Shown: one piece after another, positions 1 to 19,984 of the stretch
Layout of the letters: each line of letters opens with the position of its first letter
Numbering within the stretch: the first letter of the stretch is position 1
Assembly: GCA_031269165.1 (NCBI GenBank)
Contig: JAISZQ010000101.1
Coordinates: 1 to 43,875 of the forward strand
From: Spirochaetaceae bacterium
GTDB lineage: Bacteria > Spirochaetota > Spirochaetia > Treponematales > Breznakiellaceae
Length of the DNA: 43,875 nt
Reading direction: 5' to 3'
Notes under the pieces: generated by a model
The model's input: the letters and a program-made list of their open reading frames with translations, nothing else
Database searches by the model: none
Told to the model about the DNA's origin: nothing
Position numbers and translations under genes: made by a program

Positions 1-291
1 CCCAAGATCATGCAGTGGCTGAAACAGACGTTCTCCCTCCGGTTCAACGTGCGGACGGGAAGGAAGGCGCATCTTTGGGGGGAGCGGTACTGGTCGGAGA
101 TTCTGGCGGGGGAGCCGCCGCCTGAAGCGGAAGAGGTGGACTGGGACGCGGTCGGGGCGGAGGCAAAGACACCAATCCCGGAGGCAATGGCCTACGCGCT
201 GAGTTGGGACAGCCTGAGGACGGGGGTCTGGGAGGCGAAAACGAGTTTTTCGCCCAAAAACCGGCCCAATCCCGCGTTTCCGCCCGGCTAA
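1..291 (+). CDS. IS200/IS605-superfamily Y1 transposase, RAYT/COG1943-like, 3' part only (5' end lies outside the window)
   Basis: The frame is open from nt 1 (PKI-MQWLKQTFSLRFNVRTGRKAHLWGERYWSEIL...). This matches the conserved ..MQxLKxxxxxxxNxxxxRxGHLWqgRY/FxS.. block around the catalytic Tyr of REP-associated tyrosine transposases. The HUH half is not in the window. Confidence 0.65.
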   Translation, partial: PKIMQWLKQTFSLRFNVRTGRKAHLWGERYWSEILAGEPPPEAEEVDWDAVGAEAKTPIPEAMAYALSWDSLRTGVWEAKTSFSPKNRPNPAFPPG

Positions 292-480: not shown

Positions 481-1056
481 CTATCGTCTGAGAAGAACGG
501 TCGCCGTAATGGAAAAGAGTAACGCAAGAAGGCCGTTTGAAATGAAAACAAAGGGGATGCCTGAGATTTTCTTGCTGATGGGTTCCGATTGCGCGCGGAG
601 ATAAATCGAACCAAGCGTCAATGCGGATAAAATAAATCCGGCGAAAAAAGACAGGGAGAGAACGGCTGCTTCGGCAACGGAGGACGCGAGGCGCAGGGTC
701 GCAAAAAGTGAAAACACGCAGAGCGAGATTGACGAGAAAAAGGAATGGTCTGTTCCATAAAATAATTTCGCATGGAATTTCTGTTTGGGTACATGTTCGT
801 CGATGATATAAAACGTCAGCGCGCAGAAGGGGAAGATGAAAATGATGTCGAAAAAGCCGAGGGAGAGGGGCGTGAAGACAAACGTCCACAGCAACCAGAA
901 TAAAAACACGATAACGCTCAATGCGCCCCCGCGCAAAAAAGGGCCGCGCAAGGAAGCATCAATGTCCCGATAAATTTCCTTTATGCCTAAGCCGGTATGA
1001 AGGACGAGGTTCAAAAAAAACGACGCGAGAATGGCGCAGAGTACAATTTCGTTCAT
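481..1056 (-). CDS. rnfA: RnfA/NqrE-family membrane subunit, divergent
   Basis: 191 aa and very hydrophobic. The C-terminal ..ISGIPFVFISNGLLALLFS resembles RsxA ..GNAIALITAGLMSLAF. ATGA overlap with the upstream gene. The expected GLCPF motif reads GLGIKE. Confidence 0.6.
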   Translation of the reverse strand: MNEIVLCAILASFFLNLVLHTGLGIKEIYRDIDASLRGPFLRGGALSVIVFLFWLLWTFVFTPLSLGFFDIIFIFPFCALTFYIIDEHVPKQKFHAKLFYGTDHSFFSSISLCVFSLFATLRLASSVAEAAVLSLSFFAGFILSALTLGSIYLRAQSEPISKKISGIPFVFISNGLLALLFSITATVLLRR

Positions 1057-1778
1057 GTTTTCCTCCGATCCTGTTTTGTTTCCCGCCGGTCCGGTTCCCC
1101 TTGGTCCGATTCCCGCCGGTCTGTTTTTCGCCGTTCAATGACACGGAACAACACCATGATGAAGCCGACAAGCAAAAACGCTCCCGACGACAGGGATGCG
1201 ATTTCGACGGCGAACGAGAGGTTGCCTTCTTGGTGAAACAATTCGATGATACCGCCTGAGCCGCCCGGCAGACTCAGCGTCGCGTAGCCTAAGGGCTCCC
1301 GTATCAGCGCGATGACCATAATCAAAGCGCCTAACGAGAAACTTTCAAAAAAGCACCTTTTCAGGGCGAGGGGCAGGGGCAAGGCGGCGTACTTTTCAGA
1401 TATGTTTTCCGAATAGGCAAATATCGGCACAAACAGAGTGATAAAGAGGGTTTCCATCGCAAGGAGCGGCGTGATACAGTAGTAAACAAAGAAAAAAGCG
1501 CATCCCGCAAGATTGGCGAGAAAAACAGAGATAATTTTCCGGTTTTCCTGCGGAAACAGCGCTATTTTGCCGCCGCCTTGTTTGGGCACTTTCAGCCTTT
1601 TTAAGGCTTCCGCGATCAATACGGTAAGTACATAGACGACCACCAGATTGAGTGCCGCAATAAGGGCAAAGGCAAAGCGCGAGGACGCGACAATCAAAAG
1701 GGCGGTTGCAGAAAGAATCGTCAGCGGCCTGAAAAAAACTTTGAATAAAAACGTGATAACGTTATTTTTAACGCGCAT
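1053..1778 (-). CDS. rnfE: RnfE/NqrD-family membrane subunit, divergent
   Basis: The ORF track gives 1053..1895, but its first 39 aa are Arg-rich and overlap the upstream gene. MRVKNNVITFLFKVFFRPLTILS (start 1778) aligns with RsxE ..[20 protein letters not shown], and IALIREPLGYATL aligns with LGSLREIIGNGTL. Both canonical Cys positions are substituted. The C-terminal tail is a DRRE-type repeat. Confidence 0.6.
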   Translation of the reverse strand: MRVKNNVITFLFKVFFRPLTILSATALLIVASSRFAFALIAALNLVVVYVLTVLIAEALKRLKVPKQGGGKIALFPQENRKIISVFLANLAGCAFFFVYYCITPLLAMETLFITLFVPIFAYSENISEKYAALPLPLALKRCFFESFSLGALIMVIALIREPLGYATLSLPGGSGGIIELFHQEGNLSFAVEIASLSSGAFLLVGFIMVLFRVIERRKTDRRESDQGEPDRRETKQDRRKT

Positions 1779-2313
1779 TGCCCCGTCCCTCCTTTGCGTT
1801 TTTTCCTTGGATAACTTTTTCCGCAGCCCTTTGCAGACGGCTCGTGTAAAAATCCATGACCCCCGGCGCAAGCCGCTCATGGAGTGCCGCCGCATTTCTT
1901 GTCAGCGGGACAAGTTCGATAGCCCCATTTGTTCCGATGATTGCCAGAAACGGCGCGAATATTCCGTCACGGATCACGGGAAAGGCTACGGCGATGCTTT
2001 CGCTTCCGTTGAGCGTCCACCACGAACCGAGTTGCATCGCGGACCCGTCCATCCGCCACGGGGTAATGGGAGCATTCAGACTTCTGCCGTCTCCCCTTTG
2101 CAGAAGAGCCTTGTTCACTTCGTTTTCCAAGAGTCTTGTCCGAGGACCGGCGCTTAACAGGAACAACAGCAACACTATCAGAGAAAAAATGCCGCACCAT
2201 AACAGCGTGAGGCCCTTGTCGCCTGCTTTGACCGCAAAGACCTCAATCTTGAGGGAGATTTTTTGCAGAAAGGCGTTGACCTTATTATCGAGTATATTCA
2301 CCATAATCTCCAT
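1768..2313 (-). CDS. N-terminally anchored 181-aa protein in the RnfG position; no recognisable FMN-attachment motif
   Basis: The gene lies between the rnfD-like and rnfE-like genes and overlaps both. It has one TM segment (LTLLWCGIFSLIVLLLFLL) followed by a soluble domain. No (S/T)GA(T/S) occurs anywhere in the protein. The assignment is positional only. Confidence 0.35.
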   Translation of the reverse strand: MEIMVNILDNKVNAFLQKISLKIEVFAVKAGDKGLTLLWCGIFSLIVLLLFLLSAGPRTRLLENEVNKALLQRGDGRSLNAPITPWRMDGSAMQLGSWWTLNGSESIAVAFPVIRDGIFAPFLAIIGTNGAIELVPLTRNAAALHERLAPGVMDFYTSRLQRAAEKVIQGKNAKEGRGNAR

Positions 2314-3344
2314 TTTTTGAGTTCCTCTTTCGAGATCCGTCTTTCATAGAGGATTCTTCGTTCCAGAACGCGGAGTATCGGCAGCATCGTGTTCAAAAGA
2401 GCGATGGCGAAGAACGCCCCGTAAAACTCCATGTGTAAAAACCGGAACACGAACGTAAGCACGGCGGCGGCGAGTACATAGATGACGCTCCCGGCGTTGG
2501 ACTTAGACCCGGTTACCGGATCAGACAGGAGATAGAATGCGGTTACCAGGGTGCCGCCCGAACAGAGCGCGTAGAACATATCGCCGTCGGCCTCTTGAAC
2601 TCCCATCCCGGCAATACGCACGAGGAAGAGATAGGCGGCAAGGTACAGGAAAGGCATCCACCCGCGGAAGGTTACACAGGAAACGATGATAACGCTGCCG
2701 ACGATCAGCGCGAAAATCCCCCGGTCCGCAATGATTCCGGCGGAGGGTAACGTAAAAAGATCGACATAGGTAGGCGGAAGCCGCACCTCAAACAGCGCAA
2801 AGACATGCTCGTTCAGAAACTCGCTCATCGCTTCCCCATTGGCGGAGAGGCCGGATGCCACCGGAGGGTAACTTACCGGATCAAGCGGCGCGGTTTCGAG
2901 ACTGGTCTGCCAGATCTTGGTCCACGAAAAACGGACCGCCAGCGCGCCGCCCAGCGCGGGGTTGAGCCAGTTCGAGCCGAGACCGCCTGAGGGATAACGG
3001 ACGACTGCTATGGCGAAGGCCGCGCCGAAAACGGCAAACCCCGGGTGTATTCTGTTGGGAAGGAGCATCGCAAGGACGAGGGCGGTTACGATGACGCTGC
3101 CGTCATAGATCGTGCGCCGCCCGGTTACCAGGCATATCAGAGCCTCGGTGAGCAGAGCCGCCAGCACGGCAGCAAGCGCGACCCACATTGAAGAAAAATC
3201 GTCGCTGAGAGACGACTGGAGAACTACCAAAAAAGCGCATGCGGCAACGATGTACATACGCGCCTCCGTGGGTAGCACGAGGCTTTTTTGGGAAACGGCG
3301 CCGAAACCGCCGATCGTCTGCGGACGAGAAATGGTATAGTTCAT
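2298..3344 (-). CDS. rnfD: RnfD/NqrB-family membrane subunit, divergent
   Basis: 348 aa polytopic protein. GGLGSNWLNPALGG and LSDPVTGSKSNAGSVIYVL match the family signatures GGlG.N.fNPAl and ATDPVTsP.T..G. 4-bp overlap with the rnfC-like stop. Confidence 0.8.
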   Translation of the reverse strand: MNYTISRPQTIGGFGAVSQKSLVLPTEARMYIVAACAFLVVLQSSLSDDFSSMWVALAAVLAALLTEALICLVTGRRTIYDGSVIVTALVLAMLLPNRIHPGFAVFGAAFAIAVVRYPSGGLGSNWLNPALGGALAVRFSWTKIWQTSLETAPLDPVSYPPVASGLSANGEAMSEFLNEHVFALFEVRLPPTYVDLFTLPSAGIIADRGIFALIVGSVIIVSCVTFRGWMPFLYLAAYLFLVRIAGMGVQEADGDMFYALCSGGTLVTAFYLLSDPVTGSKSNAGSVIYVLAAAVLTFVFRFLHMEFYGAFFAIALLNTMLPILRVLERRILYERRISKEELKKWRLW

Positions 3345-4885
3345 CGCGGCTGCTCCTTAAAAGGTGAGCGTGGAAGGGAAAGAGAAGATGAAACAGAACG
3401 TGAAGCCGAAGGCACAAAGCCCTTGATCACGGTGCAAAGCGGCAATCGTGAGGGACAGACCGCCTCGCAACAGGCGCACCCGTGGCATTGGGCGATAAGA
3501 TGGGAATAGGCTTCGTCATAATCCGATGTGGTGAGCCGTTTGCAGATGCCGTCCGGGTCAAGGCCGACCGGGCAAACGGTTCTGCACAGGCCGCAGTTGA
3601 TGCAGGACGTGCCGGACCGGTCGTGTTTTTCGCGTTTGTCGTAGGTAATAAAAGGTATTTTTTTGAGGAAGGAGAACGGGGACGCGCTTTCGGCAAACAC
3701 GGCGTACGTCGTTTTGGTTATCGGTTCGTCGAGGCTGGGCTGCAAGAGGCCGGATTTCTTGAGGCCGGGCCTCACGAGGCCGGGCCTCACGAGGCCGGGC
3801 CTCGAGAGGCCATCGAGATTATTGCGCTTGGTGGGGTTGAGGGAAGAGGCTTTTTGTCCGAGCAGGGTCGATCCGAAACCGACATATTCCGGCTCTTTTT
3901 TGAAGCCGCCGCACTGCTGAAATAACTCGCCGACTCGCGTCCCGATGCGGGCGTTAATAACCGCCGGATAGCGCACCGCCGATCCGCCGACCGCGACATA
4001 GCGCGACACGAGGGGTTTCCGCAGTTTTACCGCGTCATAAACTGCGGTGAGGCAGGCGGGGTCGATGAAGAGGAGCGCGCCCAGAGATTCCAGCGTCTTT
4101 TTTTCGTATTTACGGAGCGCGATCTCCATTTCGCGCCGTCCGTGCTGGGGATAGCGGGAACCGACCTGCACCAGTGTAACCGCCGGAGCCGCCGGCACTG
4201 CCGTAGCCGCCGCATTCCGCTTTTTCGCTTCTTCCAGCAACGCTTTTCCCGTCTCCTTCCGATTTTTCGAGACGGCAAAGATGATCCGGTCCGCTTCCAC
4301 CGCCCGCGCCGCAATAGAGGCGCCCTCGACGACAGCGGATGCGCGTTCCCGGCAGAGAATCGCGTCCGCAACAAGCCAGGGGTCGTCAAACACGCAACGC
4401 ACAACGAGGGTACGCATCCTTGCTTCGTTCAACTTTTCGACAAACAGACTTTGCAGGGGCCGTTCGCTGCCCGACATCTCGACAACGCCCGCCTCGTTGA
4501 TGAGGGCGCGTATCTCAAAAGGAGACAAATTTTCCCAGGGGAATTCTTCCCTTTTTTTGCCCAGGATCTCAAACCCCCCCTTAAACTTGATGACAAAGGC
4601 TTCGTTTTTTTGTGCGGGCGGCGTATCCCAGCCGCATGTTTGCACGATTTCGCCAGGAATCGGCGCGTGAATATCCGCCCCGCCTGAGTCCTGGGGCCGG
4701 GCAAGGAGTTCGCCCTCACGAATCGTATCCCCCACCCGCACGAGGGGACAGGCGGGCGAGCCGGAATGCTGCTTCAGCGGCACGACCGAAATACTGGGGA
4801 GAAACGCCAGCACACTTTTATCCGCCGCAGGCGCGTTCGGATCCTCAAAAGAAATGCCGCCACGGGAAAATTTATAGGTATTCAT
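3341..4885 (-). CDS. rnfC: RnfC-like subunit: N-terminal barrel domain and 2x[4Fe-4S] ferredoxin motifs retained, nucleotide-binding signatures degenerate
   Basis: Start moved to ATG 4885 (MNTYKFSRGGISF..), the RnfC-type N-terminus. Conserved blocks include VPLKQHSGSPACPLVRVGDTIREGELLA..IHAPIPGEIV, CINCGLCRTVCP and CHGCACCEAVCP. The ORF track start at 4924 adds 13 aa. Confidence 0.7.
   Translation of the reverse strand: MNTYKFSRGGISFEDPNAPAADKSVLAFLPSISVVPLKQHSGSPACPLVRVGDTIREGELLARPQDSGGADIHAPIPGEIVQTCGWDTPPAQKNEAFVIKFKGGFEILGKKREEFPWENLSPFEIRALINEAGVVEMSGSERPLQSLFVEKLNEARMRTLVVRCVFDDPWLVADAILCRERASAVVEGASIAARAVEADRIIFAVSKNRKETGKALLEEAKKRNAAATAVPAAPAVTLVQVGSRYPQHGRREMEIALRKYEKKTLESLGALLFIDPACLTAVYDAVKLRKPLVSRYVAVGGSAVRYPAVINARIGTRVGELFQQCGGFKKEPEYVGFGSTLLGQKASSLNPTKRNNLDGLSRPGLVRPGLVRPGLKKSGLLQPSLDEPITKTTYAVFAESASPFSFLKKIPFITYDKREKHDRSGTSCINCGLCRTVCPVGLDPDGICKRLTTSDYDEAYSHLIAQCHGCACCEAVCPSRLPLCTVIKGFVPSASRSVSSSLSLPRSPFKEQPR
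3761..3805. repeat. 3 x 15-bp tandem repeat GAGGCCGGGCCTCAC inside the rnfC-like gene
   Basis: Read directly from the sequence. Each unit is itself palindromic (GAGGCC/GGCCTC). It encodes (RPGLV)3 in the linker before the ferredoxin domain. Confidence 0.9.
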
Positions 4886-5127: not shown

Positions 5128-6498
5128 TCATCGTACCCTTAGTATAGCAAATGGAAGCAATGTCGCCAATGCGATGAAAAACAGCGGAACACTCTCCGGC
5201 CACCTGTCGTGGAGGCGAAGCGGGGGAGAAACTGCGGAGACCGCAGCGGTTGCGGACGGCCCGCCTGTTCCTTCGATAAACGCCGCGAGACGGTCGAAGG
5301 GATAGGCCGGGATAACGCCTTCCTCTCTATCCGTCTCCATCTCGACTGTTCCCGCCGCGACATACAGACCGCTTGCGTCTTCTGTGTAACGCCGATAGGG
5401 CGGCGCGTCCTCCTCCCGGTTAATGCCCAGCGGCAGATAGGCAAATCCCGCTTGCCGCTGTCCATGCATGCGGTACTCCTCCTCGCCGACAAGGTTGCCG
5501 TAACCCTCGTTGGAAAAGTTGACAGAAAAACCCGCCGTCCCGCCGCCCGAACCGCTCAAGAACGAAGCCGTCGAGACGGCCGAGGCGATCACGCCCACCG
5601 CAAACAGGCACACGATAATGACCGGCGGGCGGCATCTTTCCAAACGGGGCGTTATTCCGCGCAGGGCCACCGGATAAAACAGGACGTGTCCCTGCCGTTT
5701 CGCCGTCCGCCACCGAACCCAGGCGGGCACTGTCCAGCCGAGCAGGAAAAGCGCGAAAGGAAAAACGGTAAGCGCGAATTGGGAAACGGAGGCCGCCCCG
5801 CCCGCCGCCGCACCGCTTGCAATAAAGGCCGCCGCCAAAAGCAACGACACGGCAACGGGCGTTTTTCTCAGAGGGATTTTTCGGCCGCGATCGGACGAAC
5901 GGCGGGCACGGTCGGATAAAAAATCCTTGAAAAACGACGGGATAAAGAGCCCGGCTATCATGAGCGTCGCCGCCCAAAGGGCCGTCTTCCCGATCATGCC
6001 GAACACCCGGCTGAACGGTGATTCCGCGTTACGCAGTATAATAATGGAAGAAACCGAAAACCCTGAAAGCGCGTCCCGGATGGCGGTCTCAATCACCTGA
6101 GCGTTCTTGTTCTGCCCGTTTGAGAGCGGTACGAAAAAACGGCGCGTCTTCTCGTTGACAAAAAACGCCCGCATGTTTTGCGCGTAAGCGTCCCGCCGGG
6201 GGTCGCCTTCCACGAGCCGTTCGTCCAGCATATCAAGCGGAACCTGCTCGACCCCAGTCCACGCGCTCAGCAAGAAAAACTGGGTTGACTCGCTTATAAC
6301 GCCCGGCATCCCGTTCTCGGTCAACGCGCCCGCAACTTCCCGGTCGGAAACCGAGGCCGGGCATTCCACCACGACGAAGGGAGACGAAAAGTTTACGGAC
6401 CCGCCGCCTTCTTCTCCGGTCAAGACCGCTGCCAGCAACGCCGCCGCGCAGGAAGAGACGGCCAAACAGAGGAGACGGATGTTCTTCATTTTCTTCAT
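5128..6498 (-). CDS. Multi-pass membrane protein with N-terminal signal sequence, unknown function
   Basis: Signal-like N-terminus MKKMKNIRLLCLAVSSCAAALLAAV, followed by several further hydrophobic segments. ATGA overlap with the upstream DUF212 gene. The opposite-strand ORF is Arg-rich junk. Confidence 0.6.
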   Translation of the reverse strand: MKKMKNIRLLCLAVSSCAAALLAAVLTGEEGGGSVNFSSPFVVVECPASVSDREVAGALTENGMPGVISESTQFFLLSAWTGVEQVPLDMLDERLVEGDPRRDAYAQNMRAFFVNEKTRRFFVPLSNGQNKNAQVIETAIRDALSGFSVSSIIILRNAESPFSRVFGMIGKTALWAATLMIAGLFIPSFFKDFLSDRARRSSDRGRKIPLRKTPVAVSLLLAAAFIASGAAAGGAASVSQFALTVFPFALFLLGWTVPAWVRWRTAKRQGHVLFYPVALRGITPRLERCRPPVIIVCLFAVGVIASAVSTASFLSGSGGGTAGFSVNFSNEGYGNLVGEEEYRMHGQRQAGFAYLPLGINREEDAPPYRRYTEDASGLYVAAGTVEMETDREEGVIPAYPFDRLAAFIEGTGGPSATAAVSAVSPPLRLHDRWPESVPLFFIALATLLPFAILRVR

Positions 6499-6971
6499 AG
6501 GTAGAAATACGCGCAGGCGATAAATATCCCTAAAAGCGAACCGACGGCGACCTCAAGCGGCGTGTGCCCGTACACTTCCTTGACCGGCAGATACTCAAGC
6601 CCCATCTTTCCCGCCACCAGTTTTCCCAGCACATTGAGGGCCTTTGCCTGCTGGCCGCTTGAACGGCGCACGCCCATCGCGTCCCGAATCACGATCATCG
6701 CCAGAAAGAACGACACGACAAAGAGGTCGGAGCCGAAGCCGTCACGCAACGCGACGGCAAGGGCCATCGCGACAACCAATGCCGCATGAGAGGAAGGCAT
6801 TCCGCCCGTCTCCCAGAGAAAGGTTTTCACGACGTTTCGCCCCGGATGCCTTGCGGGTTTCAACACGACAATGAGCGCTTTCAGGACTTGGGCGAGAAAC
6901 CAGCTTGAGATCGCGGACAAAAAGATAGGGTTTTCAAAAAAAGACCTGAGGGTCAATAAACGGGCACTCAT
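6495..6971 (-). CDS. Divergent PAP2 / DUF212 (acid phosphatase/vanadium-haloperoxidase-related) membrane protein
   Basis: The blocks FLAQVLKALI.., GGMPSSHAALVVAMA, IVIRDAMGVRR and LKEVYGHTPLEVAVGSLLG match the DUF212 family pattern. Confidence 0.75.
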   Translation of the reverse strand: MSARLLTLRSFFENPIFLSAISSWFLAQVLKALIVVLKPARHPGRNVVKTFLWETGGMPSSHAALVVAMALAVALRDGFGSDLFVVSFFLAMIVIRDAMGVRRSSGQQAKALNVLGKLVAGKMGLEYLPVKEVYGHTPLEVAVGSLLGIFIACAYFYL

Positions 6972-6976
6972 GCTTG

Positions 6977-7726
6977 TTAATCGGCGTCCTCCTCCGCTCC
7001 TTCCGGGAAAAGATACAAATCCTGCAACTTAAACGTGCGGGACATCGAGAAAGGGACGTCCGCCACACCTTCGCTTACCACCAGCACCTCAAAGAAATGG
7101 TTGAGCGTTTCAAACCCCTCGGTCTTAATCCGTACCGCAAACTCAAAGACGGACTGTTCACCCGCTGTTTTGGCCTCGGCCGGCCGGGGCCAAAAGGTAA
7201 ACGTGCCTTCCGTGTCCTTGACAAACCGATAGGGATTCTGCCAGTTGGCATCGCGCATCGCAACCAGTTCCCCGCCCTGGACAAGTTCCACATCGATACC
7301 GGACAAAGGCTCAAAATTGACCCCGTTGAAAACCCGCCCGATGATGACGGGAATATTGAACACGGTGCGGTCGCGTGCCACGTATTCCGCCTCTTTCGAG
7401 GAATGGGACTGGTGGTCAAAGTTAGGCCGCCGGTTATGCGCGACATCCTCAAGCGCCTTATAGATAAGCACCGTAAGGTCGATACCCTTCTGCCGCCGCT
7501 CAAGCGTCTCCCGTTCAAGCCTCGCCACACCGCGATTGGACACCACATACGAAGGTTGCGTCCGGTTCAGCACATAGCAGGCCGCATCCAGACGGCATTG
7601 ACCACAGGTACAGAGCTCCGGTTTCTGCCCGCTCGTCTCGATTTCGTCGCAAATCGCGTCTACTTCTTTGAGCACCAAGTCTTCCGTCAAATTGTGAATC
7701 TTGTGATTTTTAAGTACCGTTTCCAT
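6977..7726 (-). CDS. ComFB-domain protein with a C-terminal carboxypeptidase-regulatory-like beta-sandwich
   Basis: The N-terminus HNLTEDLVLKEVDAICDEIE...CTCGQCRLDAACYVLNRTQPSYVV is a typical ComFB signature. The C-terminal IIGRVFNGVNFEPLSGIDVELV is CarboxypepD_reg-like. Confidence 0.7.
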   Translation of the reverse strand: METVLKNHKIHNLTEDLVLKEVDAICDEIETSGQKPELCTCGQCRLDAACYVLNRTQPSYVVSNRGVARLERETLERRQKGIDLTVLIYKALEDVAHNRRPNFDHQSHSSKEAEYVARDRTVFNIPVIIGRVFNGVNFEPLSGIDVELVQGGELVAMRDANWQNPYRFVKDTEGTFTFWPRPAEAKTAGEQSVFEFAVRIKTEGFETLNHFFEVLVVSEGVADVPFSMSRTFKLQDLYLFPEGAEEDAD

Positions 7727-7950: not shown

Positions 7951-9201
7951 CTAAAGAGAGTATACCAGATCCCCCCGGTCTTTGTCCACAAAGAAACGTA
8001 CCGTGCGCAACGTTTTGACAAAGGAGGCCACCGTCTCCGCCCCAAACACCGTGGAACTCCGCTCGAAGGGACAATCCTCGTCAAGCACATGGAGACCGGT
8101 TTCAAAGTCCACCCGTTCCGGCACGTCGATGATGACCGTTGCGCCGTATTGGGCGGAAATTTCCGCTTCGGCCTCCGCACGGCATTGCAGATCCTCCCGA
8201 TTCTCCCAATGGTGGTGTTTGGCCTCGTCAAAAGGCACTTCGCCCACACAGGTCCAGATCTTCCCGTCCCGCAACCCCCGTGCCGCGTCGAACAGGGCCT
8301 CGGATGAAGACGCACCCTTTCCCCGCCCCGCCGTCCTTCTCTTACGCAAAAGATCGAAAAGCCCGTTGTCGTCCAAATTATACAACTCCTCAGGCGACAA
8401 AAGCGCGTCGTGTAACGCGGAATGGAGCGTCTTCTTCATCACGGCGGTCGCGGCCCGCACCCCCTTATGCCAGTACACCGATCGGTACATCAAATATTTG
8501 GAAAAAAGCACCGATTCCACGCTCGAAATCGCCTTGGAATCGATGTCGACGCCGCGTTCCCGGCTTGGATGGAGGCGCGAAAGAATAAAATCCACGTCTT
8601 GAGTGCCGTAGGTAACCCCGGCAAAACGCGCGTCCCGGTTGAGATAGTCGAGTTTGTCAGGATCGAGGCAGCCGGAGAGCAGTTTCCGGTAAAAAAGCAC
8701 CTCCTTGTCGTCCGTTGCGCGCCCCGTATCGAGAATCGCCGCCGCCACCGCAGGATCGGCTCCGGCCTTCTCCACGAGGGAGGCTGTCGGGTCGGCTTCG
8801 ATGAGCCGCGCCCCCAACTGTTCGTGCCCGGTCAACGCGAGCTCTTTGAGCGAATGGGCGTAAGGAAAATGCCCGATGTCGTGGAGCAGTGCCGCGCAGA
8901 GAAACGAACGAATGCCCTGCGCCGTCACAAACGAGTCGGCCCCCCGCTCGCACAGTCCGGTGATGAGGCGGCGCGCGATATGGTAGACCCCGATCGAGTG
9001 GGCCGCCCGCGTGTGCGTCGCCCCCGGATAGACGAGGCTCGCGGGCCCCAGTTGGGCAATACGGTTGAGACGGCTAAACGCGGGCGTCCGCGTAACCGCC
9101 TCAAGCGCCGGCGTAAAATAAACGTGTCCCCACAGCGCGTCCCGGCACGGCTCGCTAAACCCCTCGAAAAGCGCGCTGTTCACCGATGCCTTTTTCAACA
9201 T
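7951..9201 (-). CDS. HD-domain phosphohydrolase, COG1078 / SAMHD1-like dNTP triphosphohydrolase family
   Basis: Conserved blocks are FSRLNRIAQLG, GATHTRAAHSIGVYHIARRL, LLHDIGHFPYAH and DPDKLDYLNRDA. ATG 9201 overlaps the TGA of the upstream small ORF (TGATG); a GTG at 9204 is an alternative start. Confidence 0.8.
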   Translation of the reverse strand: MLKKASVNSALFEGFSEPCRDALWGHVYFTPALEAVTRTPAFSRLNRIAQLGPASLVYPGATHTRAAHSIGVYHIARRLITGLCERGADSFVTAQGIRSFLCAALLHDIGHFPYAHSLKELALTGHEQLGARLIEADPTASLVEKAGADPAVAAAILDTGRATDDKEVLFYRKLLSGCLDPDKLDYLNRDARFAGVTYGTQDVDFILSRLHPSRERGVDIDSKAISSVESVLFSKYLMYRSVYWHKGVRAATAVMKKTLHSALHDALLSPEELYNLDDNGLFDLLRKRRTAGRGKGASSSEALFDAARGLRDGKIWTCVGEVPFDEAKHHHWENREDLQCRAEAEAEISAQYGATVIIDVPERVDFETGLHVLDEDCPFERSSTVFGAETVASFVKTLRTVRFFVDKDRGDLVYSL

Positions 9202-9410
9202 CACCAGTTAAGATACTTATAGTTCGTAACCACTTCCGGTTCAAGCGACGCAAGGGCTTCTTCATCTGATTTTGAAGCGTCTATCATTAACGTAGACCCC
9301 ATCATCCTTCTATATAGCGCATCCGTTATGTCATTTACCTTATGCTGTCCATACACTTGAGGCACTTTTATCGAAAGCAAGAGAATGACAACGACCGCCG
9401 TTTTGTTCAT
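9201..9410 (-). CDS. 69-aa exported small protein, unknown function
   Basis: Good RBS (AAGGAGAAATCTGA-ATG). Signal-like MNKTAVVVILLLSIKVPQVYG. The stop overlaps the HD-gene start. About 40% GC by hand count. Confidence 0.5.
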   Translation of the reverse strand: MNKTAVVVILLLSIKVPQVYGQHKVNDITDALYRRMMGSTLMIDASKSDEEALASLEPEVVTNYKYLNW

Positions 9411-11435: not shown

Positions 11436-11466
11436 TTTCAGGGTACGGACAGAATAGGTAGTGGGG

Positions 11467-12321
11467 ATGACGAATATCCATAAATGTAACAACAATATCA
11501 TTTTCGCGGAGGACAAGGGCCAGCAGGTGATTGCGCTGGGCAAGGGACTGGGGTTTAGTCTCAAGCCGGGCGACGAGGTGGACATGAGCCTCGTGGAAAA
11601 GGTCTTTGTGCCGCAGGAGGCCCTTCAGCTTGGCCGCTTTCAGGATATTCTCGCCGACCTGCCCTATGAGCACGTCATTCTGGCCAGCAAGATTGTCGAT
11701 TTGGGACGGGCGCGGCTGGGTCAGGCGCTCAATCAGAGCATTGTCATCGCGCTTGCCGACCACTTAAGTTTCGCCATCAAGCGTCAGCACGACCATCTCG
11801 ATATTCAGATGCCGCTGATTTGGGACATCAAGCATATCTATCCCGCTGAGTTTGCGGTGGGCGAAGAGGCGTTGGGCGTGATTAAGGCGGAGACGGGGAT
11901 CGACTTTCCCCGCGCCGAGGCTGCGGCGATCACGCTCCACTTCATCAACGCGGAATCCGATCTGGCGGATATGCCCAACACGATCAAAATGTCGAACATC
12001 ATCCAGCAGTCGGTGAGGATCATCGAGGCGCACTACAAGACGTCGTTTGACGAGAGTTCCCTCGATTTCAGCGGGCTGATCGCGCTGCTCCGCAACACGG
12101 TGATGCGCTTTATCTATCCCGACCGGGAAAAACAGATCGAAGAAGACACGGTGCTTTACCAGTTGTTGCGAAAACGCTACGCGCACTCGTTTACCTGTGC
12201 CGAAAAGGTGGCCTCTTTTATCGAGCGGGAGTATGACTTTAGGCTTTCAGGGAACGACGTGTCGTTCTTGACCCTCTTCATTGACCGGATTACGGCAGGA
12301 AGCGGTTCCGATAAGGGGTGA
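11467..12321 (+). CDS. licT: BglG/LicT/SacY-family PRD-containing transcription antiterminator
   Basis: MTNIHKCNNNIIFAEDKGQQVIALGKGLGF..GDEVD...VEKVF matches the CAT domain. Two PRD-like halves follow. A GTG at 11461 is an alternative start. Confidence 0.85.
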   Translation: MTNIHKCNNNIIFAEDKGQQVIALGKGLGFSLKPGDEVDMSLVEKVFVPQEALQLGRFQDILADLPYEHVILASKIVDLGRARLGQALNQSIVIALADHLSFAIKRQHDHLDIQMPLIWDIKHIYPAEFAVGEEALGVIKAETGIDFPRAEAAAITLHFINAESDLADMPNTIKMSNIIQQSVRIIEAHYKTSFDESSLDFSGLIALLRNTVMRFIYPDREKQIEEDTVLYQLLRKRYAHSFTCAEKVASFIEREYDFRLSGNDVSFLTLFIDRITAGSGSDKG

Positions 12322-12333
12322 ACCCCCAGGGGG

Positions 12334-12545
12334 CCCCGCAGGGGCTTCCCTTGGGCTCGTTGTGATGAGAACGGGCAAGGGTGTCCCCCTACGGGGGAGT
12401 GAACGCGGTGGGCGGCCCGCAGGGGCTTTCCTTGGGCGCGTTGTGATGAGAACGGGTGTCGGCGTCCCCCTACGGGGGAGTGAACGCGGTGGGCGGCCCG
12501 CAGGGGCTTTTCTTAGGCGCGGCGTATTGAGAACGGGTGTCGGGA
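12334..12545. repeat. About 2.7 tandem copies of an ~81-bp GC-rich unit
   Basis: The unit GGCCCGCAGGGGCTTTCCTTGGGCGCGTTGTGATGAGAACGGGTGTCGGCGTCCCCCTACGGGGGAGTGAACGCGGTGGGC repeats at about 12334, 12414 and 12495. A single related unit lies at 16953-17020. Confidence 0.85.
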
Positions 12546-12775
12546 TTGTCATAGCGGGGCGCGAAGCAAAACGGAGTCGTCATTGCGAGGCGCGAAGCAA
12601 CGAAGCAATCGGACGCGCGTTGCGTGAATGGAAAATGAGAAGGCGGCAACAGAGTTGCTGTGAGCGGCGAAGGCCCACCGGGGTCTTCCGCGGGCTCAAG
12701 GCGTGTTGGGTAAGAGCGCGGGTTTCCCATTAGGGGCGTGCGACGCGCCCAAGGGCCCACCGCAGGTGCGGAAAC

Positions 12776-12857
12776 GGGGGCGTTGCGGGGGTGTCCCCCG
12801 CAGAGGGGGTAGCGTAAGACGCGAAGCGGCTGGAGCGAGGGGGAGACTTCCCCCCAC
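12776..12857 (+). repeat. Variant of the three-hairpin element (copy B; middle hairpin replaced)
   Basis: It shares GGGGGCGTTGCGGGGGTGTCCCCCGC..GAGGGGG and GGGGGAGACTTCCCCCC with copies A and C. The central part resembles 20385-20420 instead. Confidence 0.7.
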
Positions 12858-13020
12858 TCCTCCTTCTTTGGCTTGCTCTCCCCCGAAGGGGGGTGCCGAG
12901 GGTCGTTCACGGTGCGATGCGCCCAAGGAAAGGGCCTGAGGCCCCGTAGGGGCATGGTGTTTGGTAATCTACGGACCGGGGAACCGGGACGTAAATATAA
13001 ATTTTTATAGGAGATAGAAA

Positions 13021-14973
13021 ATGGCAAAGGATTTTGGAAAGACGGCCCAGGGCGTATTGGACGGCGTGGGCGGCAAAGAGAACGTGAGGAGTGTTGTGCA
13101 CTGCGCGACGCGCCTCCGGTTCACGCTGGTTGACAACGCGAGGGCAAACGACGACGCGGTGAAGGGAACTGCGGGCGTGGTGAGTGTGGTCAAGGCGGGC
13201 GGCTTGTACCAGGTGGTCATCGGGAACGATGTGCACGAGGTCTTCGAGGAGCTTGAGAAGCTGGGCCTTCCAACCAGTGGCGGAGGAGAAGGGGGCGGGG
13301 GGGGGGGTCTGCCGGAAAAGCAATCCCTCGGCAATATGCTGATTGGGACGATTTCCGGCGTGTTTACCCCGATTCTTCCGGCAATGATGGGTATGGGTCT
13401 TCTCAAGGGGCTTATCGCCATCTTGCAGATGATCTTTCCCGGCTGGGCGGCTTCCGGCGACACGTCCTACACGGTGCTTTACGCCGCCGCCGATGCGCTC
13501 ATGTACTTCCTGCCTATTCTGATCGCCTATACTTCGGCGCAAAAGTTCAAACTCGACCCGCTTCTCGGTATGACGATTGGCGCGGCGCTGGTTTATCCGA
13601 CTATCGTTGAGCTTTATCCTTTCGGTCCCTGGGGCTTAAACAAATTCTTCGGCGCGGACATTTTGGTCATGATGCGCTACTCAGGCACGGTACTGCCCTC
13701 GATTTTCGCGGTCTACGGCGCGTCCAAGTTGTACCAGTACTTCCGAAAAACAATCCCGTCGGCGGTAAAGAACTTCCTCGCGCCCTTCTTTACGCTGATC
13801 ATAACCGTTCCCTTGATGTTTCTTATCATCGGGCCGGTGTTCGGCGTGGTGGGACTGGGGCTTCAACGCGCCATCGGATCAATCGTCGAACTGCGCTTTA
13901 TCGGACCGATTCTCCTGGGGCTTATCATAGGCGGCTTCTGGCAGGTGCTGGTCGTCTTTGGTCTCCACTGGGCGGTCGTCCCTATAGCAATGCAGGAAAT
14001 GGGAACGCCGAATCCGCTCTGGGGCAATGCCAACGTTTCGGTCATATTCTCCTATACGCAGATTGCGGTTATCGCGCAGCTTGGCGCGGTGCTCGCTATG
14101 GCGGTCAAAATGAAGAATGCCGAACGGAAGTCGGCGGCGGTTTCTGCGGGTATCGCCGGCATATTCGGGATTACCGAGCCAATCATCTACGGCTTTACGC
14201 TGCCCAAGAAGAGGCCGTTCTTTACCGCTTGTTTCTGCGGGGCGGGCGCGGGCGCGCTGGCGGCTTTCGCGGGCAATATCCTCGTGTCTGACGGACGGGG
14301 CATTGCCTCCGGTATGGGCGGCATGGGGCTCTTCGCGTATCCGGCTTACTTGATCCCGAACTTTCCCCAGGCCGGGGCAAACCTGGTTATCGCGCTTGTC
14401 GCGAGTGTGCTTTCGGCCGGGGCAGCCTTTGTCCTTGTCTACCTCACCTACAAACCGGACGAGGCGGAAATGAAGGTGACGGAAGAAGTCGTCATCGACA
14501 CGTCCAAAGTGAACACCGCCAAAGCGAAAAAGATTTTCGCCCCGGTGAAAGGGCGCGTTCTCCCCATCACCCAGTCAGCCGATCCCGCCCACCAGCAGGA
14601 AGCGGTCGGGAAGGGCGTGTGCTTCATGCCGCTGGGCGGAAAGATTTTCGCGCCGTGCGACGGGACGGTCGAGATGGTCTTCGACACAAAGCACGCGATC
14701 AACATCAAGTCCCCCGACGGTGTGGAAGTGTTGATCCACTGCGGCATCGACACGGTGAAGCTGGGCGGCAAGGGCTTTACGACTCACGTGAAAGACGACG
14801 ACCCGGTCAAGGCGGGCCAGTTGATCCTCGAATACAACAAAGACGTGATCGCGCGCTCCGGTTTCAGCCTCGAAACGCAGGTCGTCATCACCAACACAGG
14901 CGACTACAAGGCCATCACCCAAGCGAAAGCCGGGGATTGCAACGTGGGCGATTTGATTCTCTACGTGGAGTAG
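13021..14973 (+). CDS. bglF: PTS beta-glucoside-family transporter, fused EIIB-EIIC-EIIA
   Basis: EIIB domain VVHCATRLRF, a polytopic EIIC domain, and a C-terminal EIIA(Glc) domain ..DTKHAINIKSPDGVEVLIHCGIDTVKLGG. Confidence 0.9.
   Translation: MAKDFGKTAQGVLDGVGGKENVRSVVHCATRLRFTLVDNARANDDAVKGTAGVVSVVKAGGLYQVVIGNDVHEVFEELEKLGLPTSGGGEGGGGGGLPEKQSLGNMLIGTISGVFTPILPAMMGMGLLKGLIAILQMIFPGWAASGDTSYTVLYAAADALMYFLPILIAYTSAQKFKLDPLLGMTIGAALVYPTIVELYPFGPWGLNKFFGADILVMMRYSGTVLPSIFAVYGASKLYQYFRKTIPSAVKNFLAPFFTLIITVPLMFLIIGPVFGVVGLGLQRAIGSIVELRFIGPILLGLIIGGFWQVLVVFGLHWAVVPIAMQEMGTPNPLWGNANVSVIFSYTQIAVIAQLGAVLAMAVKMKNAERKSAAVSAGIAGIFGITEPIIYGFTLPKKRPFFTACFCGAGAGALAAFAGNILVSDGRGIASGMGGMGLFAYPAYLIPNFPQAGANLVIALVASVLSAGAAFVLVYLTYKPDEAEMKVTEEVVIDTSKVNTAKAKKIFAPVKGRVLPITQSADPAHQQEAVGKGVCFMPLGGKIFAPCDGTVEMVFDTKHAINIKSPDGVEVLIHCGIDTVKLGGKGFTTHVKDDDPVKAGQLILEYNKDVIARSGFSLETQVVITNTGDYKAITQAKAGDCNVGDLILYVE
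13297..13307 (+). repeat. G11 homopolymer inside the bglF coding sequence (EIIB-EIIC linker)
   Basis: Counted directly. It is preceded by GGGGGC and encodes part of GGGEGGGGGGL. Confidence 0.95.
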
Positions 14974-14992
14974 ATAAGGGATAAGCGTCCCC

Positions 14993-15130
14993 GTCATTGC
15001 GAGGAGGCGGCGGGTTGCTGACGACGAAGCAATCCAGACGGGGAATGCTTCCGCGCTGGGTTGCTTCGCCCGCTCTAACGAGCGGCTCGCTCGCAATGAC
15101 GGGGCTCGCTCTAACGGGCGGGTCGCGAGG
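14993..15130. repeat. REP-like family-1 element block
   Basis: GTCATTGCGAGG..GAAGCAATCCAGACGGGGAATGCTTCCGCGCTGGGTTGCTTCGC..CTCGCAATGAC. Confidence 0.85.
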
Positions 15131-15239
15131 CAAAAGGTATAGAGGTTAAAAAATAACAAAATTGATTTGTGCGGTTTCTGTTATCTGTGGTTATAAGGAG
15201 TTTTTTATGGGGTTTAAATTTATTTTTGGAGGAAGAAAG

Positions 15240-16130
15240 ATGAGAAACAAAAGGATTTTTTGCGGTTTGTTGGTAGTTGTGTCGGTGTTCTTGGCGGTGC
15301 CGGTGTTTGCGGGCAGTCAGGCGGAGAACACCACGCAAGCGGCAAAGAACTCGGAGAGTTCTACGGACTCAACGAGTTCCGCGGACTCAGCGAGTTCCGC
15401 GAACTCGGTCACCATTTATGTGGTGCGGCACGGACAGACGATTTTCAATCTGATGGACCGGGTTCAGGGAATTTCCGACGGCATTTTGACCGAAAAGGGA
15501 ATCGTGGGCGCGGTCAACATGGGAAAAGGGTTGCGCGACGTACCGTTCAATGCCGTGTATTCAAGCGATTTGAAGCGGGCGATTGAGACGGCGCGGCTTG
15601 CGATGGAGCAGAACCGCGCAACAAAGCAATGGACGGTTACGGAAAAGAAAGAATTGCGCGAGGTGAGTTTCGGCATTTTTGAGGGCGATCCGAACTGGAT
15701 GATGTATGCGGCTCTTGCCAAGGATTTAGGAATTACGATTCCTGATGACGCGAAGTCGATAGGCGCGGCGGTTATGCCAATCGTGCAGTACTACGGCGGA
15801 GACACGAAAAAGTTCCTTGAAGGGCTGGCGGATTTCAACAAAAAAGTTGACACGACCTACAAGATTTCCGAGGATGCGTCCGAGGTGTACGCGCGCCTCA
15901 AGAAGGGCATGAACGCGATTGTCACCGAAAACCCGAACGGCGGCAACGTGATGCTGGTCGCCCACGGCCAGTCGATCTCCTTTCTGCTCGCGGCAGTCGG
16001 CGTTGAAGTTTCCGCCCAGCTTGGCAACTCAAGCGTAACCAAACTCGTCTACGACTATGCGACAAAAACGTACCGCATTGACGGCCCGGTCGGGGATATG
16101 AGTTATGCGGAAGCGGGCGAGAAGATGTAG
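15240..16130 (+). CDS. Exported histidine phosphatase (phosphoglycerate-mutase-like superfamily), paralogue 1
   Basis: RBS GGAGG plus ATG 15240. Signal peptide MRNKRIFCGLLVVVSVFLAVPVFA/GS, then a Ser/Thr-rich linker. Catalytic YVVRHGQTIFN, and LVAHGQSI near the C-terminus. Confidence 0.8.
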   Translation: MRNKRIFCGLLVVVSVFLAVPVFAGSQAENTTQAAKNSESSTDSTSSADSASSANSVTIYVVRHGQTIFNLMDRVQGISDGILTEKGIVGAVNMGKGLRDVPFNAVYSSDLKRAIETARLAMEQNRATKQWTVTEKKELREVSFGIFEGDPNWMMYAALAKDLGITIPDDAKSIGAAVMPIVQYYGGDTKKFLEGLADFNKKVDTTYKISEDASEVYARLKKGMNAIVTENPNGGNVMLVAHGQSISFLLAAVGVEVSAQLGNSSVTKLVYDYATKTYRIDGPVGDMSYAEAGEKM

Positions 16131-16181
16131 GGTGGAGAAGGGTTTTTTATGGGTTTAACATTATTTTTGGAGGCAACAGAG

Positions 16182-16952
16182 ATGAGAAGCAAGAGAATTC
16201 TTTGCGGTTTGTTGGTGGTTGTGTCGGTGTTCTTGGCGGTACCGGTGTTTGCGGGCGGCGGCGGGGAAAAGCCGGTTACGATTTATGTAACGCGGCACGG
16301 TCGGACGCTTTTTAACACGAAAGAGCTCGCGCAGGGGTGGGCGGATAGCCCGCTTACGCCTGAAGGGATTGCGGTTGCGGAAGATTTAGGGCGCGGGTTG
16401 CGGGATGTGCCGTTTGACTACGTGATTTCCAGTGACTTGGTGCGGGCGCGGCAAACGGCCCGGCTGGTGATGGCGCAAAACCGTGTCAGCAAGAACTACC
16501 GGCTTGAGGACACAGAGACGTTGCGCGAAGCCTGTTACGGTCAGTTTGAGGGCGACCCGAACGGCGAAATGATCGCCGCTTTTGCCAAAGAAACGGGGGC
16601 TACGATGGAATCTATGATGCAGGATCCCTATATGTGGCTGAAAGCGGCGGACTCGGTAAAACGGCTTGATACGAGCGGCATGGCGGAAGACGCGGCGACG
16701 ATCAAGGCCCGTATGCAGGGAACGCTCACTGCGGTTGCGAAGGCCCAGGCGAAAAAGGGCGGCAATGTCCTCTTGGTCGCGCACGGCCAGTCGATTAACA
16801 TCATGCTGTCCGACCTTGACCCGGCGTTTAACTACACGGGGACGTCACTCGCAAACGCGGCGGTGAGCAAAGTTGTCTATCAGAACGGCAAGTTCACCAT
16901 CGAGTCGTTTAACGACACCAGTTATATCGACGCCGGCAAGGCTTTGCGGTAG
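16182..16952 (+). CDS. Exported histidine phosphatase, paralogue 2
   Basis: The 5' UTR and signal peptide are nearly identical to paralogue 1 (MRSKRILCGLLVVVSVFLAVPVFAGG). Catalytic motifs YVTRHGRTLFN and LVAHGQSI. Confidence 0.8.
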   Translation: MRSKRILCGLLVVVSVFLAVPVFAGGGGEKPVTIYVTRHGRTLFNTKELAQGWADSPLTPEGIAVAEDLGRGLRDVPFDYVISSDLVRARQTARLVMAQNRVSKNYRLEDTETLREACYGQFEGDPNGEMIAAFAKETGATMESMMQDPYMWLKAADSVKRLDTSGMAEDAATIKARMQGTLTAVAKAQAKKGGNVLLVAHGQSINIMLSDLDPAFNYTGTSLANAAVSKVVYQNGKFTIESFNDTSYIDAGKALR

Positions 16953-17021
16953 CCCCTCGGGGGCTTTCCTTGGGCTTGTTGCGAGGAGAACGAGTGTCGG
17001 GTCCCCCTTCGGGGGAGGGTC

Positions 17022-17262
17022 GTCATTGCGAGGGCGGAGCCCGAAGCAATCCAGACGAGGGAGGCCCTTACCCTGGATTGCCGCGCTACGCTCGCAATGA
17101 CGGGGGCTCGCTCGCAATGACACGTGCGGTGGGCGAAGGAACATCGTCATTGCGAGGGCGGAGCCCGAAGCAATCCAGACGGAGGATGCCCTCACCCTGG
17201 ATTGCCGCGCTTCGCTCGCAATGACGGGGGGCTCGCTCGCAATGACACGTGCGGTGGGCGGA
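17022..17262. repeat. Two tandem REP-like family-1 units (~125 bp each)
   Basis: GTCATTGCGAGGGCGGAGCCCGAAGCAATCCAGACG..CCCTGGATTGCCGCGC..CGCTCGCAATGAC..GCTCGCTCGCAATGACACGTGCGGTGGGCG occurs twice. Confidence 0.9.
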
Positions 17263-17336
17263 TTGGTTGTGCGTTGTGATTAAGGTTGTTATTTATTTTA
17301 TGGAAGGAGTTTTTTATGAATAGGAAGGAGTTTGTT

Positions 17337-18167: not shown

Positions 18168-18386
18168 CACGTGCGGTGGGCGGAGGGACATCGTCATTGC
18201 GAGGGCGGAGCGACGAAGCAATCTAGACGGAGAAGGCCGTCACCCTGGATTGCCGCGCTTCGCTCGCAATGACAAAGGGCAACGTCATTGCGAGGGCGAA
18301 GGAACATCGTCATTGCGAGGGCGGAGCCCGAAGCAATCCAGACGGAGGATGCCTTCACCCTAGATTGCTTCGCTTCGCTCGCAATG
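18157..18386. repeat. REP-like family-1 block (2 units plus half-sites)
   Basis: It begins GCTCGCAATGACACGTGCGGTGGGCGG, as in 17101-17133 and 17225-17262, and is followed by two GTCATTGCGAGGGCG..GAAGCAATC(C/T)AGACGGAG.. hairpins. Confidence 0.9.
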
Positions 18387-18529
18387 GCAGAGGGTGGCGC
18401 GTGTTGCGCGAATAGACAGAAGCATTAAACAGGGAGAATGCCGTGTTATGGAGACCGCGCGTTCTGTTGCCATCTTTTTCCAGTCTCCATGTACCATTTT
18501 TCATTCCCCAGAGGGGATTTCCCCTTTGA

Positions 18530-19984
<1,455 letters not shown>

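Follow-up and report, generated by a model that had tools for sequence, protein, structure and literature searches.

An intact Rnf-like operon of the Treponema lineage in which few canonical redox sites appear to be left

An intact operon with few redox sites left

Rnf and Nqr are redox-driven ion pumps. In the 43,875-nt stretch of DNA from a Spirochaetaceae bacterium analysed here (contig JAISZQ010000101.1 of assembly GCA_031269165.1; hereafter the window), five overlapping open reading frames (ORFs) at positions 481-4885 of the minus strand follow the gene order C-D-G-E-A of an rnf operon, and all five are intact. Judged from sequence comparison, this operon is a Treponema-lineage-specific derivative of rnfCDGEAB, and the canonical redox sites left to it are the two [4Fe-4S] clusters of the RnfC-like subunit and a single central cysteine. 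What survives would be a cytoplasmic C-like subunit, with its two predicted [4Fe-4S] clusters, on a membrane core derived from RnfD, RnfE and RnfA. The canonical passage of electrons from ferredoxin into the membrane, to the periplasm, back into the membrane and on to NAD+ (oxidized nicotinamide adenine dinucleotide) is probably impossible for such a complex, because the RnfB entry, the mid-membrane centre, the covalent flavins and the pocket for NAD(H) and flavin mononucleotide (FMN) are missing.

For comparison, we took the canonical cofactors and the route of the electrons from a 2025 review (PMC12174285), in which the membrane-core cofactors of Rnf and Nqr are described as strictly conserved and Treponema is not mentioned. 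Escherichia coli RsxABCDGE (locus L086) served as the canonical reference for the family alignments. Of the 477 encoding stretches that turned up in a metagenome scan, 80 loci were used; the alignments comprised 51 C-like, 83 D-like, 65 E-like and 59 A-like proteins. The family comprises about 45 clusters at 50% identity, with hundreds of metagenomic members. When the D-like protein was used as a query, more than 120 relatives were found at 40-100% identity; the named ones were all Spirochaetaceae or Treponema metagenome-assembled genomes (MAGs), and essentially none of the relatives carries the flavinylation motif [ST]GA[ST]. Names borne by members of the family and its relatives include Treponema sp., Breznakiellaceae, Treponemataceae, Candidatus Treponema faecavium, Candidatus Gallitreponema and Candidatus Avitreponema. 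Within this family, the clade of the window consists of the window itself (WIN) and loci L001, L087, L088 and L089.

The earlier note on this DNA had described a unit of five genes at 481-4885 with overlaps of 4, 16, about 11 and 4 nt. The ORF coordinates agree with these overlaps (C/D 4 nt, D/G 16 nt, G/E 11 nt, E/A 4 nt) and the five-gene core stands, but the unit is larger than was claimed and extends upstream to nt 6971. Its first gene (6495-6971, minus strand, as is the whole operon) encodes a DUF212 protein, a divergent membrane protein of the PAP2 family (Pfam PF02681, E=1.4e-41), and overlaps by 4 nt the following gene, which we call U (5128-6498). U encodes a multi-pass membrane protein of 456 aa with no family assigned, is conserved in 35 loci, and occupies the slot which the literature on Treponema pallidum tentatively gave to RnfB. 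The full unit therefore reads DUF212, U, C, D, G-slot, E and A. All 29 of the 29 loci whose flanks are long enough show these seven genes in this order, mostly with 4-nt overlaps and with a U protein of 430-535 aa, so that DUF212 and U are constant partners.

The operon is under purifying selection and is not decaying. The ratios of nonsynonymous to synonymous substitution rates (dN/dS), computed against L001, a relative 82% identical to the window, were 0.07 for DUF212 (the lowest of the module), 0.37 for U, 0.20 for C, 0.25 for D, 0.15 for the G-slot gene, 0.31 for E and 0.23 for A. Since the genes are intact in the window and in more than 80 loci, these ratios all lie between 0.07 and 0.37, and the substituted motifs described below are near-invariant in the 51 to 83 members of the family alignments, the operon is maintained, as the earlier note had supposed.

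At the level of whole proteins, the NCBIfam models for rnfC, rnfD, rsxE and rnfA match the operon, every score being far below the curated cutoff. Pfam models match the C-like and D-like proteins and none matches the G-slot, E-like or A-like protein; PF02508 (Rnf-Nqr) in particular found neither the E-like nor the A-like protein of the window.

The RnfC-like subunit

The 514-aa RnfC-like protein (3341-4885) is securely related to RnfC. It aligns with the solved chains 7zc6_C, 8ahx_C and 9eri_C at phmmer E-values of 1.7e-37 to 1e-27, with 7zc6_C as the best match (E=1.7e-37), and scores above cutoff with the Pfam models RnfC_N, Complex1_51K and SLBB, while Fer4 also matches. Against TIGR01945 it reaches 198.7 bits (cutoff 245.95).

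Compared with these three chains and with RsxC, the NADH/FMN motifs GxGGAGFP, NxxECEPY and GGPMMG are all lost. The glycine-rich FMN/NADH loop G(I/L)xGxGGAGFP is replaced by AGVVEMSGSERP (4457-4492), which aligns under aGIVGmGGAtFP in the phmmer alignments to the solved chains. In the place of NxAECEPYLTxD stands RCVFDDPWLVAD (4364-4399), aligned under NaaECEPYLtcD, and GGPMMG is replaced by GSTLLG (3857-3874); the alignments of the family place these last two in the same way. The replacements are themselves near-invariant among the 51 C-family members, where they take the forms GIVEMEGSGRP, (V)RCVFDDPW and GSPLSG, with VFDDPW conserved in at least 95%. Both CxxCxxCxxxCP motifs for [4Fe-4S] clusters are kept, the first as CINCGLCRTVCP (3569-3604) and the second as CHGCACCEAVCP (3452-3487); the four cysteines of each, eight in all, are present in 51/51 members. 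That both Fe-S motifs are retained and three other motifs replaced was already claimed in the earlier note, and phmmer arrives at the same register.

We also considered a new cysteine-based metal site in the pocket of the C-like protein and did not adopt it. Cys325 (in 'CGGF') is found as well in the RnfC of Azotobacter vinelandii and Acetobacterium woodii, and it is not new; Cys164 and Cys178 are family-specific and conserved in 92% and 96% of members, respectively. The C-like gene further harbors an in-frame tandem array of a 15-nt unit at 3761-3811 (3.4 copies, 94% match). Its product, an (RPGLV)n stretch inserted after the SLBB domain and ahead of the Fe-S domain, is not found in other family members.

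The membrane subunits D, A and E

The 348-aa RnfD/NqrB-like protein (2298-3344) belongs to PF03116 (NQR2_RnfD_RnfE; E=6.8e-47, 160.7 bits), scores 98.6 with TIGR01946 (cutoff 207) and aligns to both RnfD and NqrB chains, with a phmmer E-value of 2.5e-16 against 9eri_D. In these alignments no (S/T)GAT-like sequence is present at the acceptor site: SLETAPLD (2880-2903) is found where the flavinylated (S/T)GAT-PL loop is expected, and the acceptor threonine is absent. In the alignment of the D family the loop that carries this threonine is deleted in the clade of the window, and a relic loop, 'GSPLGILK', occurs in 7/83 members. A motif scan gave no sign of cryptic flavinylation sites: D..[ST]GA[ST] was found in none of 400 family proteins and in no frame of the window. 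The claim that this subunit belongs to the NqrB/RnfD family and has lost its flavinylation site thus holds. The D-like proteins retain GGLGxNxxNPA as well as an acidic (D/E)P motif, and the transmembrane glutamate of RnfA ('FTEMV' in RsxA) is kept in at least 90% of the A-like proteins; in the light of Nqr mutagenesis, these three features may be tied to cation handling.

The RnfA-like protein (191 aa, 481-1056) is related to RnfA over its full length, its family profile matching 8ahx_A, 9eri_A, 7zc6_A and the NqrE chain 7xk3_E with E-values of 8e-9 to 1e-6. In the profile alignment GLGIKE (976-993) lies at the GLCPF site and the Cys-Pro-Phe tripeptide is deleted, a gap that removes the GLCP cysteine in 59/59 members of the A family. 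In both the profile and the phmmer alignments Cys113 (718-720) falls exactly under the cysteine of the RnfA 'TNC' motif, and therefore one of the four ligand positions of the intramembrane [2Fe-2S] centre is still a cysteine. A cysteine is found in this column in 5/5 members of the window's clade; it is rare elsewhere, where the residue is usually Thr, Ile or Val.

The relation of the RnfE-like protein to RnfE is weak. Its start is the ATG at 1778 that matches those of its relatives, which gives 241 aa (1053-1778), the longest ORF reaching 1895. NCBIfam RsxE matches its C-terminal part only (E=4.5e-5), phmmer relates it to 8ahx_E at E=3.9e-4, and its family profile reaches E=0.083. No cysteine occurs before residue 93, and at the position of the RnfE 'TNC' ligand the family alignment shows FVPIFAYSEN (1404-1433), which contains no cysteine. 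This TNC cysteine is kept in 59/65 (91%) of the E family and is absent from the column in WIN, L001, L087, L088 and L089, L087 having a cysteine one residue after it; the GLCP cysteine is Gly or Ala in all 65 members. Of the four cysteine ligands of the [2Fe-2S] centre, the window thus keeps one (A-like Cys113), and the other family members keep none but the TNC cysteine of the E-like protein. Exactly one thiol is therefore found close to the middle of the pseudo-symmetric pair of A and E, carried by either of the two subunits.

The earlier note had stated that most of these cysteines are absent, with GLGIKE for GLCPF and YSE for TNC, and it was right in this; it overlooked Cys113, and its alignment of FFRPL with GLCPL in the E-like protein is probably about seven residues out of register. 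The absence of a cysteine from the predicted first transmembrane segment of the E-like protein, as well as the absence of SGAT, does not depend on the register. We also observed an in-frame tandem array of a 15-nt unit at 1080-1121 (2.8 copies), where the E-like gene encodes a charged C-terminal tail.

The G-slot protein and U

The protein in the G slot (181 aa, 1768-2313) has an N-terminal anchor followed by a domain of about 100 aa. As claimed before, it has the membrane anchor and no (S/T)GA(T/S), and we found no match to it in Pfam or NCBIfam. Its AlphaFold2 model, built from a 45-sequence alignment, has a predicted local distance difference test (pLDDT) score of 87.7 and consists of a five-strand sheet with helices. 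A search of the Protein Data Bank (PDB) with the family profile found neither RnfG nor NqrC, and a Foldseek search of the PDB with the model gave nothing below E=0.2 and neither of these two proteins. The family hidden Markov model also failed to detect RsxG or the G proteins of the relatives L090, L091 and L092 discussed below, and the G protein of L092, which itself bears an SGAT, showed no link to RnfG in the PDB. An origin of the G-slot protein from RnfG by degeneration is thus not supported, every one of these searches being negative, and we did not count as evidence a by-eye likeness of 'GxIxxxVGxDxxGxIxG' to an FMN_bind hairpin. The protein is an 'RnfG' by gene position and membrane anchor alone.

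Of the two upstream partners, U matches no Pfam or NCBIfam model, Pfam FtsX included, and is not cysteine-rich. Its hydropathy predicts an N-terminal anchor, a soluble domain of about 140 aa and then more transmembrane segments. The AlphaFold2 model of U is poor (pLDDT 54), and its top Foldseek match is FtsX (E=7e-5, TM-score 0.23-0.32), a weak lead that U may be FtsX-like.

Absence of RnfB and a graded series of relatives

The earlier note had found no rnfB on either side of the operon, and the wider search agrees with it. No frame of nt 1-480 contains a ferredoxin-like ORF, nor is there an RnfB- or ferredoxin-like ORF elsewhere in the window, and none follows the A gene in any of 49 related loci (0/49) of the family at 40-100% identity. 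An rnfB running off the end of the window at nt 1 was also considered and rejected, as no cysteine-rich frame is present there. No apbE was found in the 43.9-kb window.

RnfB was found only in three distant syntenic relatives, L090, L091 and L092, which share the neighbourhood DUF212-U-C-D-G-E-A followed by a GH57 gene. They came to light when the full library was searched with the D-family profile: about 46 representatives score above roughly 198 bits, all without SGAT, and below these the proteins become progressively more canonical. In L090 (of the Candidatus Treponema faecavium type) and L091 (from a MAG labelled Bacteroides/Prevotella), a 226-aa RnfB-like gene with Fer4 follows the A gene; SGAT is missing from both D and G, and the NADH motifs of RnfC and the A/E cysteines are missing as well. 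The third, L092 (the P0310 locus), has a genuine RnfB with PF04060 and Fer4. Its RnfE and RnfA proteins pass PF02508, its D protein carries SGATPL and its G protein DLISGAT. Its RnfC has already lost the NADH/FMN motifs, which read GVVSMDSKAIPL, KAFDTDPY and GTAMQG, and in its E and A proteins GLTP, IDS and GIIP stand in place of the cysteine motifs. This syntenic intermediate operon lies at L092:4605-11642.

The earlier note had called the operon maintained, re-purposed or very deep-branching. The first two terms are supported; a deep branch is not, because the syntenic intermediates L090-L092 still carry RnfB, and L092 also SGAT. Instead, the comparison of these operons places the window at the far end of a lineage-specific series of losses, derived within the Treponema lineage. 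The apparent order of loss is that of the RnfC NADH site and the A/E cysteines, then the flavinylation sites, then RnfB, as read from extant states without a root.

The label of L091 deserves a remark. This locus (GCA_023666275.1, JAMPCJ010000004.1, protein P0322) is recorded as 'Bacteroides sp. / Prevotella sp.' in the NCBI MAG records, and its neighbourhood is of the Treponema type (PolyA_pol, RluD-like, DUF212, U, C-D-G-E-A-B, GH57, MetRS). This gene content suggests that L091 is mis-binned or mislabelled.

Comparison with known systems

The operon resembles canonical Rnf (RnfABCDGE, structures 7ZC6, 8AHX and 9ERI, and RsxABCDGE) in its C-D-G-E-A gene order, in the RnfC barrel, 51K-like fold, SLBB domain and two [4Fe-4S] motifs of the C-like protein, in the PF03116 fold family of the D-like protein, in the full-length homology of the A-like protein to RnfA and in the C-terminal half of the E-like protein. 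In contrast to canonical Rnf, it lacks RnfB, the RnfC NADH/FMN motifs, the flavinylated threonine of RnfD, a detectable RnfG and three of the four [2Fe-2S] cysteines of A and E, and it has two extra conserved genes, DUF212 and U.

The closest described system is the T. pallidum operon tp0153-tp0148, which encodes RnfC (TP0152), RnfD (TP0151), the RnfE-like TP0149 and two more transmembrane proteins, is co-transcribed with tp0147, and was named a 'noncanonical Rnf', none of its components having a recognisable motif for flavinylation (Deka et al. 2015, PMC4436053). Matched by its published description alone, it shares with the window a 'B'-slot gene upstream of RnfC, followed by RnfD and then three transmembrane proteins, the absence of a flavinylation motif and the Treponema lineage (PMC4436053). 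However, that paper is silent on a missing NADH/FMN site in RnfC and on missing cysteines in RnfA and RnfE, and still models the complex as a flavin-based flavodoxin:NAD+ pump, and the same group later retained such a pump, feeding ATP synthase (PMC7512555).

A precedent for the loss of cofactors is offered by NqrA of Na+-NQR, an RnfC homologue that has lost its redox cofactors and is still integral to the complex; in NqrA, however, the Fe-S clusters are lost too, whereas the C-like family strictly keeps both [4Fe-4S] motifs. Na+-NQR as a whole differs from the window in keeping its [2Fe-2S] centre, both covalent FMNs and riboflavin, with NqrF as the NADH entry module. The two-subunit Nqr/Rnf-like complexes (Meheust 2021; 10.1101/2024.03.13.584918) also have an NqrB/RnfD-like subunit without the flavinylated threonine, but this subunit is fused to a NAD-binding domain and is paired with a flavinylated NqrC/RnfG-like partner, and relatives of RnfC, RnfE and RnfA are lacking. 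We rejected an assignment of the operon to this two-subunit system, whose architecture is different.

In the open-access papers and preprints we found no mention of the loss of the RnfC NADH/FMN site, of the loss of the RnfA/E cysteines or of the DUF212 and U partners. As far as we could find, this noncanonical kind was flagged in 2015 through T. pallidum and never dissected, and the extent of cofactor loss, the graded series, the seven-gene unit and the implication for the T. pallidum model are new.

Possible functions of the complex

Taking these results together, the best explanation is, we believe with modest confidence, that the operon encodes a maintained, exapted derivative of Rnf that has lost most of its redox sites; what role it has is a matter of speculation. 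In such a complex the Fe-S subunit might serve as a sensor of ferredoxin or flavodoxin, or trade electrons with such a soluble carrier, at the cytoplasmic face, and the membrane core of D, E and A might keep an ion- or solute-conducting or structural role together with DUF212 and U. A more specific proposal, that the Treponema-lineage complex, probably including that of T. pallidum, neither moves electrons across the membrane nor reduces NAD+ and acts with DUF212 and U as an Fe-S-gated or Fe-S-sensing conduit, is possible but we hold it to be doubtful. Several points weigh against exaptation. The 'ion or solute conduit' is a guess, and non-covalent flavins (for example at the riboflavin site of RnfD) or a partner encoded elsewhere may supply what the operon seems to lack. 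That the two [4Fe-4S] clusters are strictly conserved speaks for some remaining electron transfer, and one cysteine is always present at the A/E centre, contributed by the E-like protein (91% of the family) or, in the clade of the window, by the A-like protein. The altered pocket of RnfC shows high conservation, and another nucleotide or flavin could bind there. The register of the N-terminal part of the E-like protein and the ancestry of the G-slot protein appear to be weakly or positionally founded.

The most substantial rival is that the complex is a working redox-driven ion pump of the T. pallidum 'noncanonical Rnf' type, which would use non-covalent or cryptic flavins, take electrons from flavodoxin or ferredoxin and reduce NAD+, as proposed in PMC4436053 and PMC7512555. 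The invariance of both [4Fe-4S] motifs (100%), the purifying selection on all membrane subunits and the presence in some lineages of an RnfB-like ferredoxin or of the relic 'GSPLGILK' loop in D would fit such a pump. However, the three RnfC NADH/FMN motifs are replaced throughout the family, even in its least degenerate relative, L092; D..[ST]GA[ST] was not found in the 400 family proteins or the window frames; of the four ligands of the [2Fe-2S] centre, three or all four are lacking; and RnfB does not follow the A gene in the 49 loci examined for it. Moreover, from the canonical geometry in PMC12174285 we infer that, without the mid-membrane centre, the gap between the cytoplasmic and periplasmic carriers would be too long. 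We consider such a pump unlikely.

Another possibility, which we judge quite improbable, is that the scaffold of Rnf now serves a non-bioenergetic machine of the envelope or of carbohydrate metabolism in the membrane, with its activity residing in the PAP2-like DUF212 protein, U and GH57. DUF212 and U are invariably linked to the module, of which DUF212 is the most conserved gene, a GH57 gene (amylase or branching-enzyme-like) is translationally coupled to the A gene, starting 0 to -3 nt from its stop, in about 33 of 49 loci (e.g. L002-L005), and the top Foldseek matches of U are FtsX chains. These matches, however, come from a model with a pLDDT of 54 and have TM-scores of 0.23-0.32 with no Pfam FtsX match, the operon encodes no ATP-binding cassette (ABC) ATPase, and GH57 is absent from the window's clade, not being downstream of the operon in WIN, L001, L087 or L088. 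The invariance of the eight Fe-S cysteines would also be left unexplained. Finally, that the genes are decaying pseudogenes, or that the motif losses are artefacts of alignment register, has a negligible probability. The E-like and G-slot proteins are indeed too diverged for confident alignment, but the ORFs are intact in more than 80 loci with dN/dS well below 1, and the alignments are statistically secure for C (E=1e-37), for D (E=1e-16) and, by profile, for A (E=8e-9), leaving no ambiguity in the position of the motifs, so this explanation is effectively refuted.

Implications

In contrast to the textbook Rnf and Nqr pumps, we see here a scaffold that is kept under selection while nearly all of its electron carriers have been discarded, and the natural intermediates allow one to follow through evolution which of the cofactors are dispensable to the scaffold. 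If exaptation is the true explanation, nature offers for study a redox pump that has shed its cofactors step by step. The operon of L092 would be the best candidate for biochemical comparison. The unit also brings to light two unannotated constant partners, DUF212 and U (about 450-530 aa).

The current model of non-glycolytic ATP production in the agent of syphilis rests on the tp0148-tp0153 complex (PMC4436053, PMC7512555). The RnfC NAD(H)/FMN pocket is missing in every relative that we examined, and if TP0152 also lacks it, the flavodoxin:NAD+ reaction would be impossible at that site and the model would need revision. Should exaptation be correct, the flavin-based 'Rnf' model of energy conservation in this spirochaete would be wrong.

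Genomic neighbourhood

Upstream of the unit, 5 nt separate the end of a gene with a ComFB domain (6977-7726, minus strand) from the DUF212 gene, and the ComFB gene is itself preceded by an HD/HD_assoc_2 gene (7951-9204, minus strand). The transcription unit in the window's clade may reach further upstream to include these two genes, because the order HD-ComFB-DUF212 recurs in L087 and L088. In one termite-gut Treponema lineage (L002/L003:1798-5577), genes of a V-type ATPase (AC39, subunit I, c and F) lie upstream of the module, and only a pseudouridine synthase gene separates them from DUF212, U and the Rnf-like genes.

Directly downstream of the operon, an open frame that contains MQWLKQTFSLRFNVRTGRKAHLWGERYWSEIL enters from the start of the window (1-291, plus strand). 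It has no Pfam match; it may resemble the C-terminal part of tyrosine transposases of the IS200/REP type.

Farther away, a sugar locus of the beta-glucoside type (11461-19984, plus strand) encodes a BglG-like antiterminator (CAT_RBD, PRD), an EIIBCA protein of the phosphotransferase system and a GH1 glycosidase, and three tandem His_Phos_1 paralogues lie within it at 15162-18167. Two ORFs without a Pfam match, one of 789 aa (27724-30093, minus strand) and one of 464 aa (30937-32331, plus strand), adjoin a pair of ABC permease genes, a sensor kinase (His_kinase, HAMP, dCache) and a response regulator of the AraC type.

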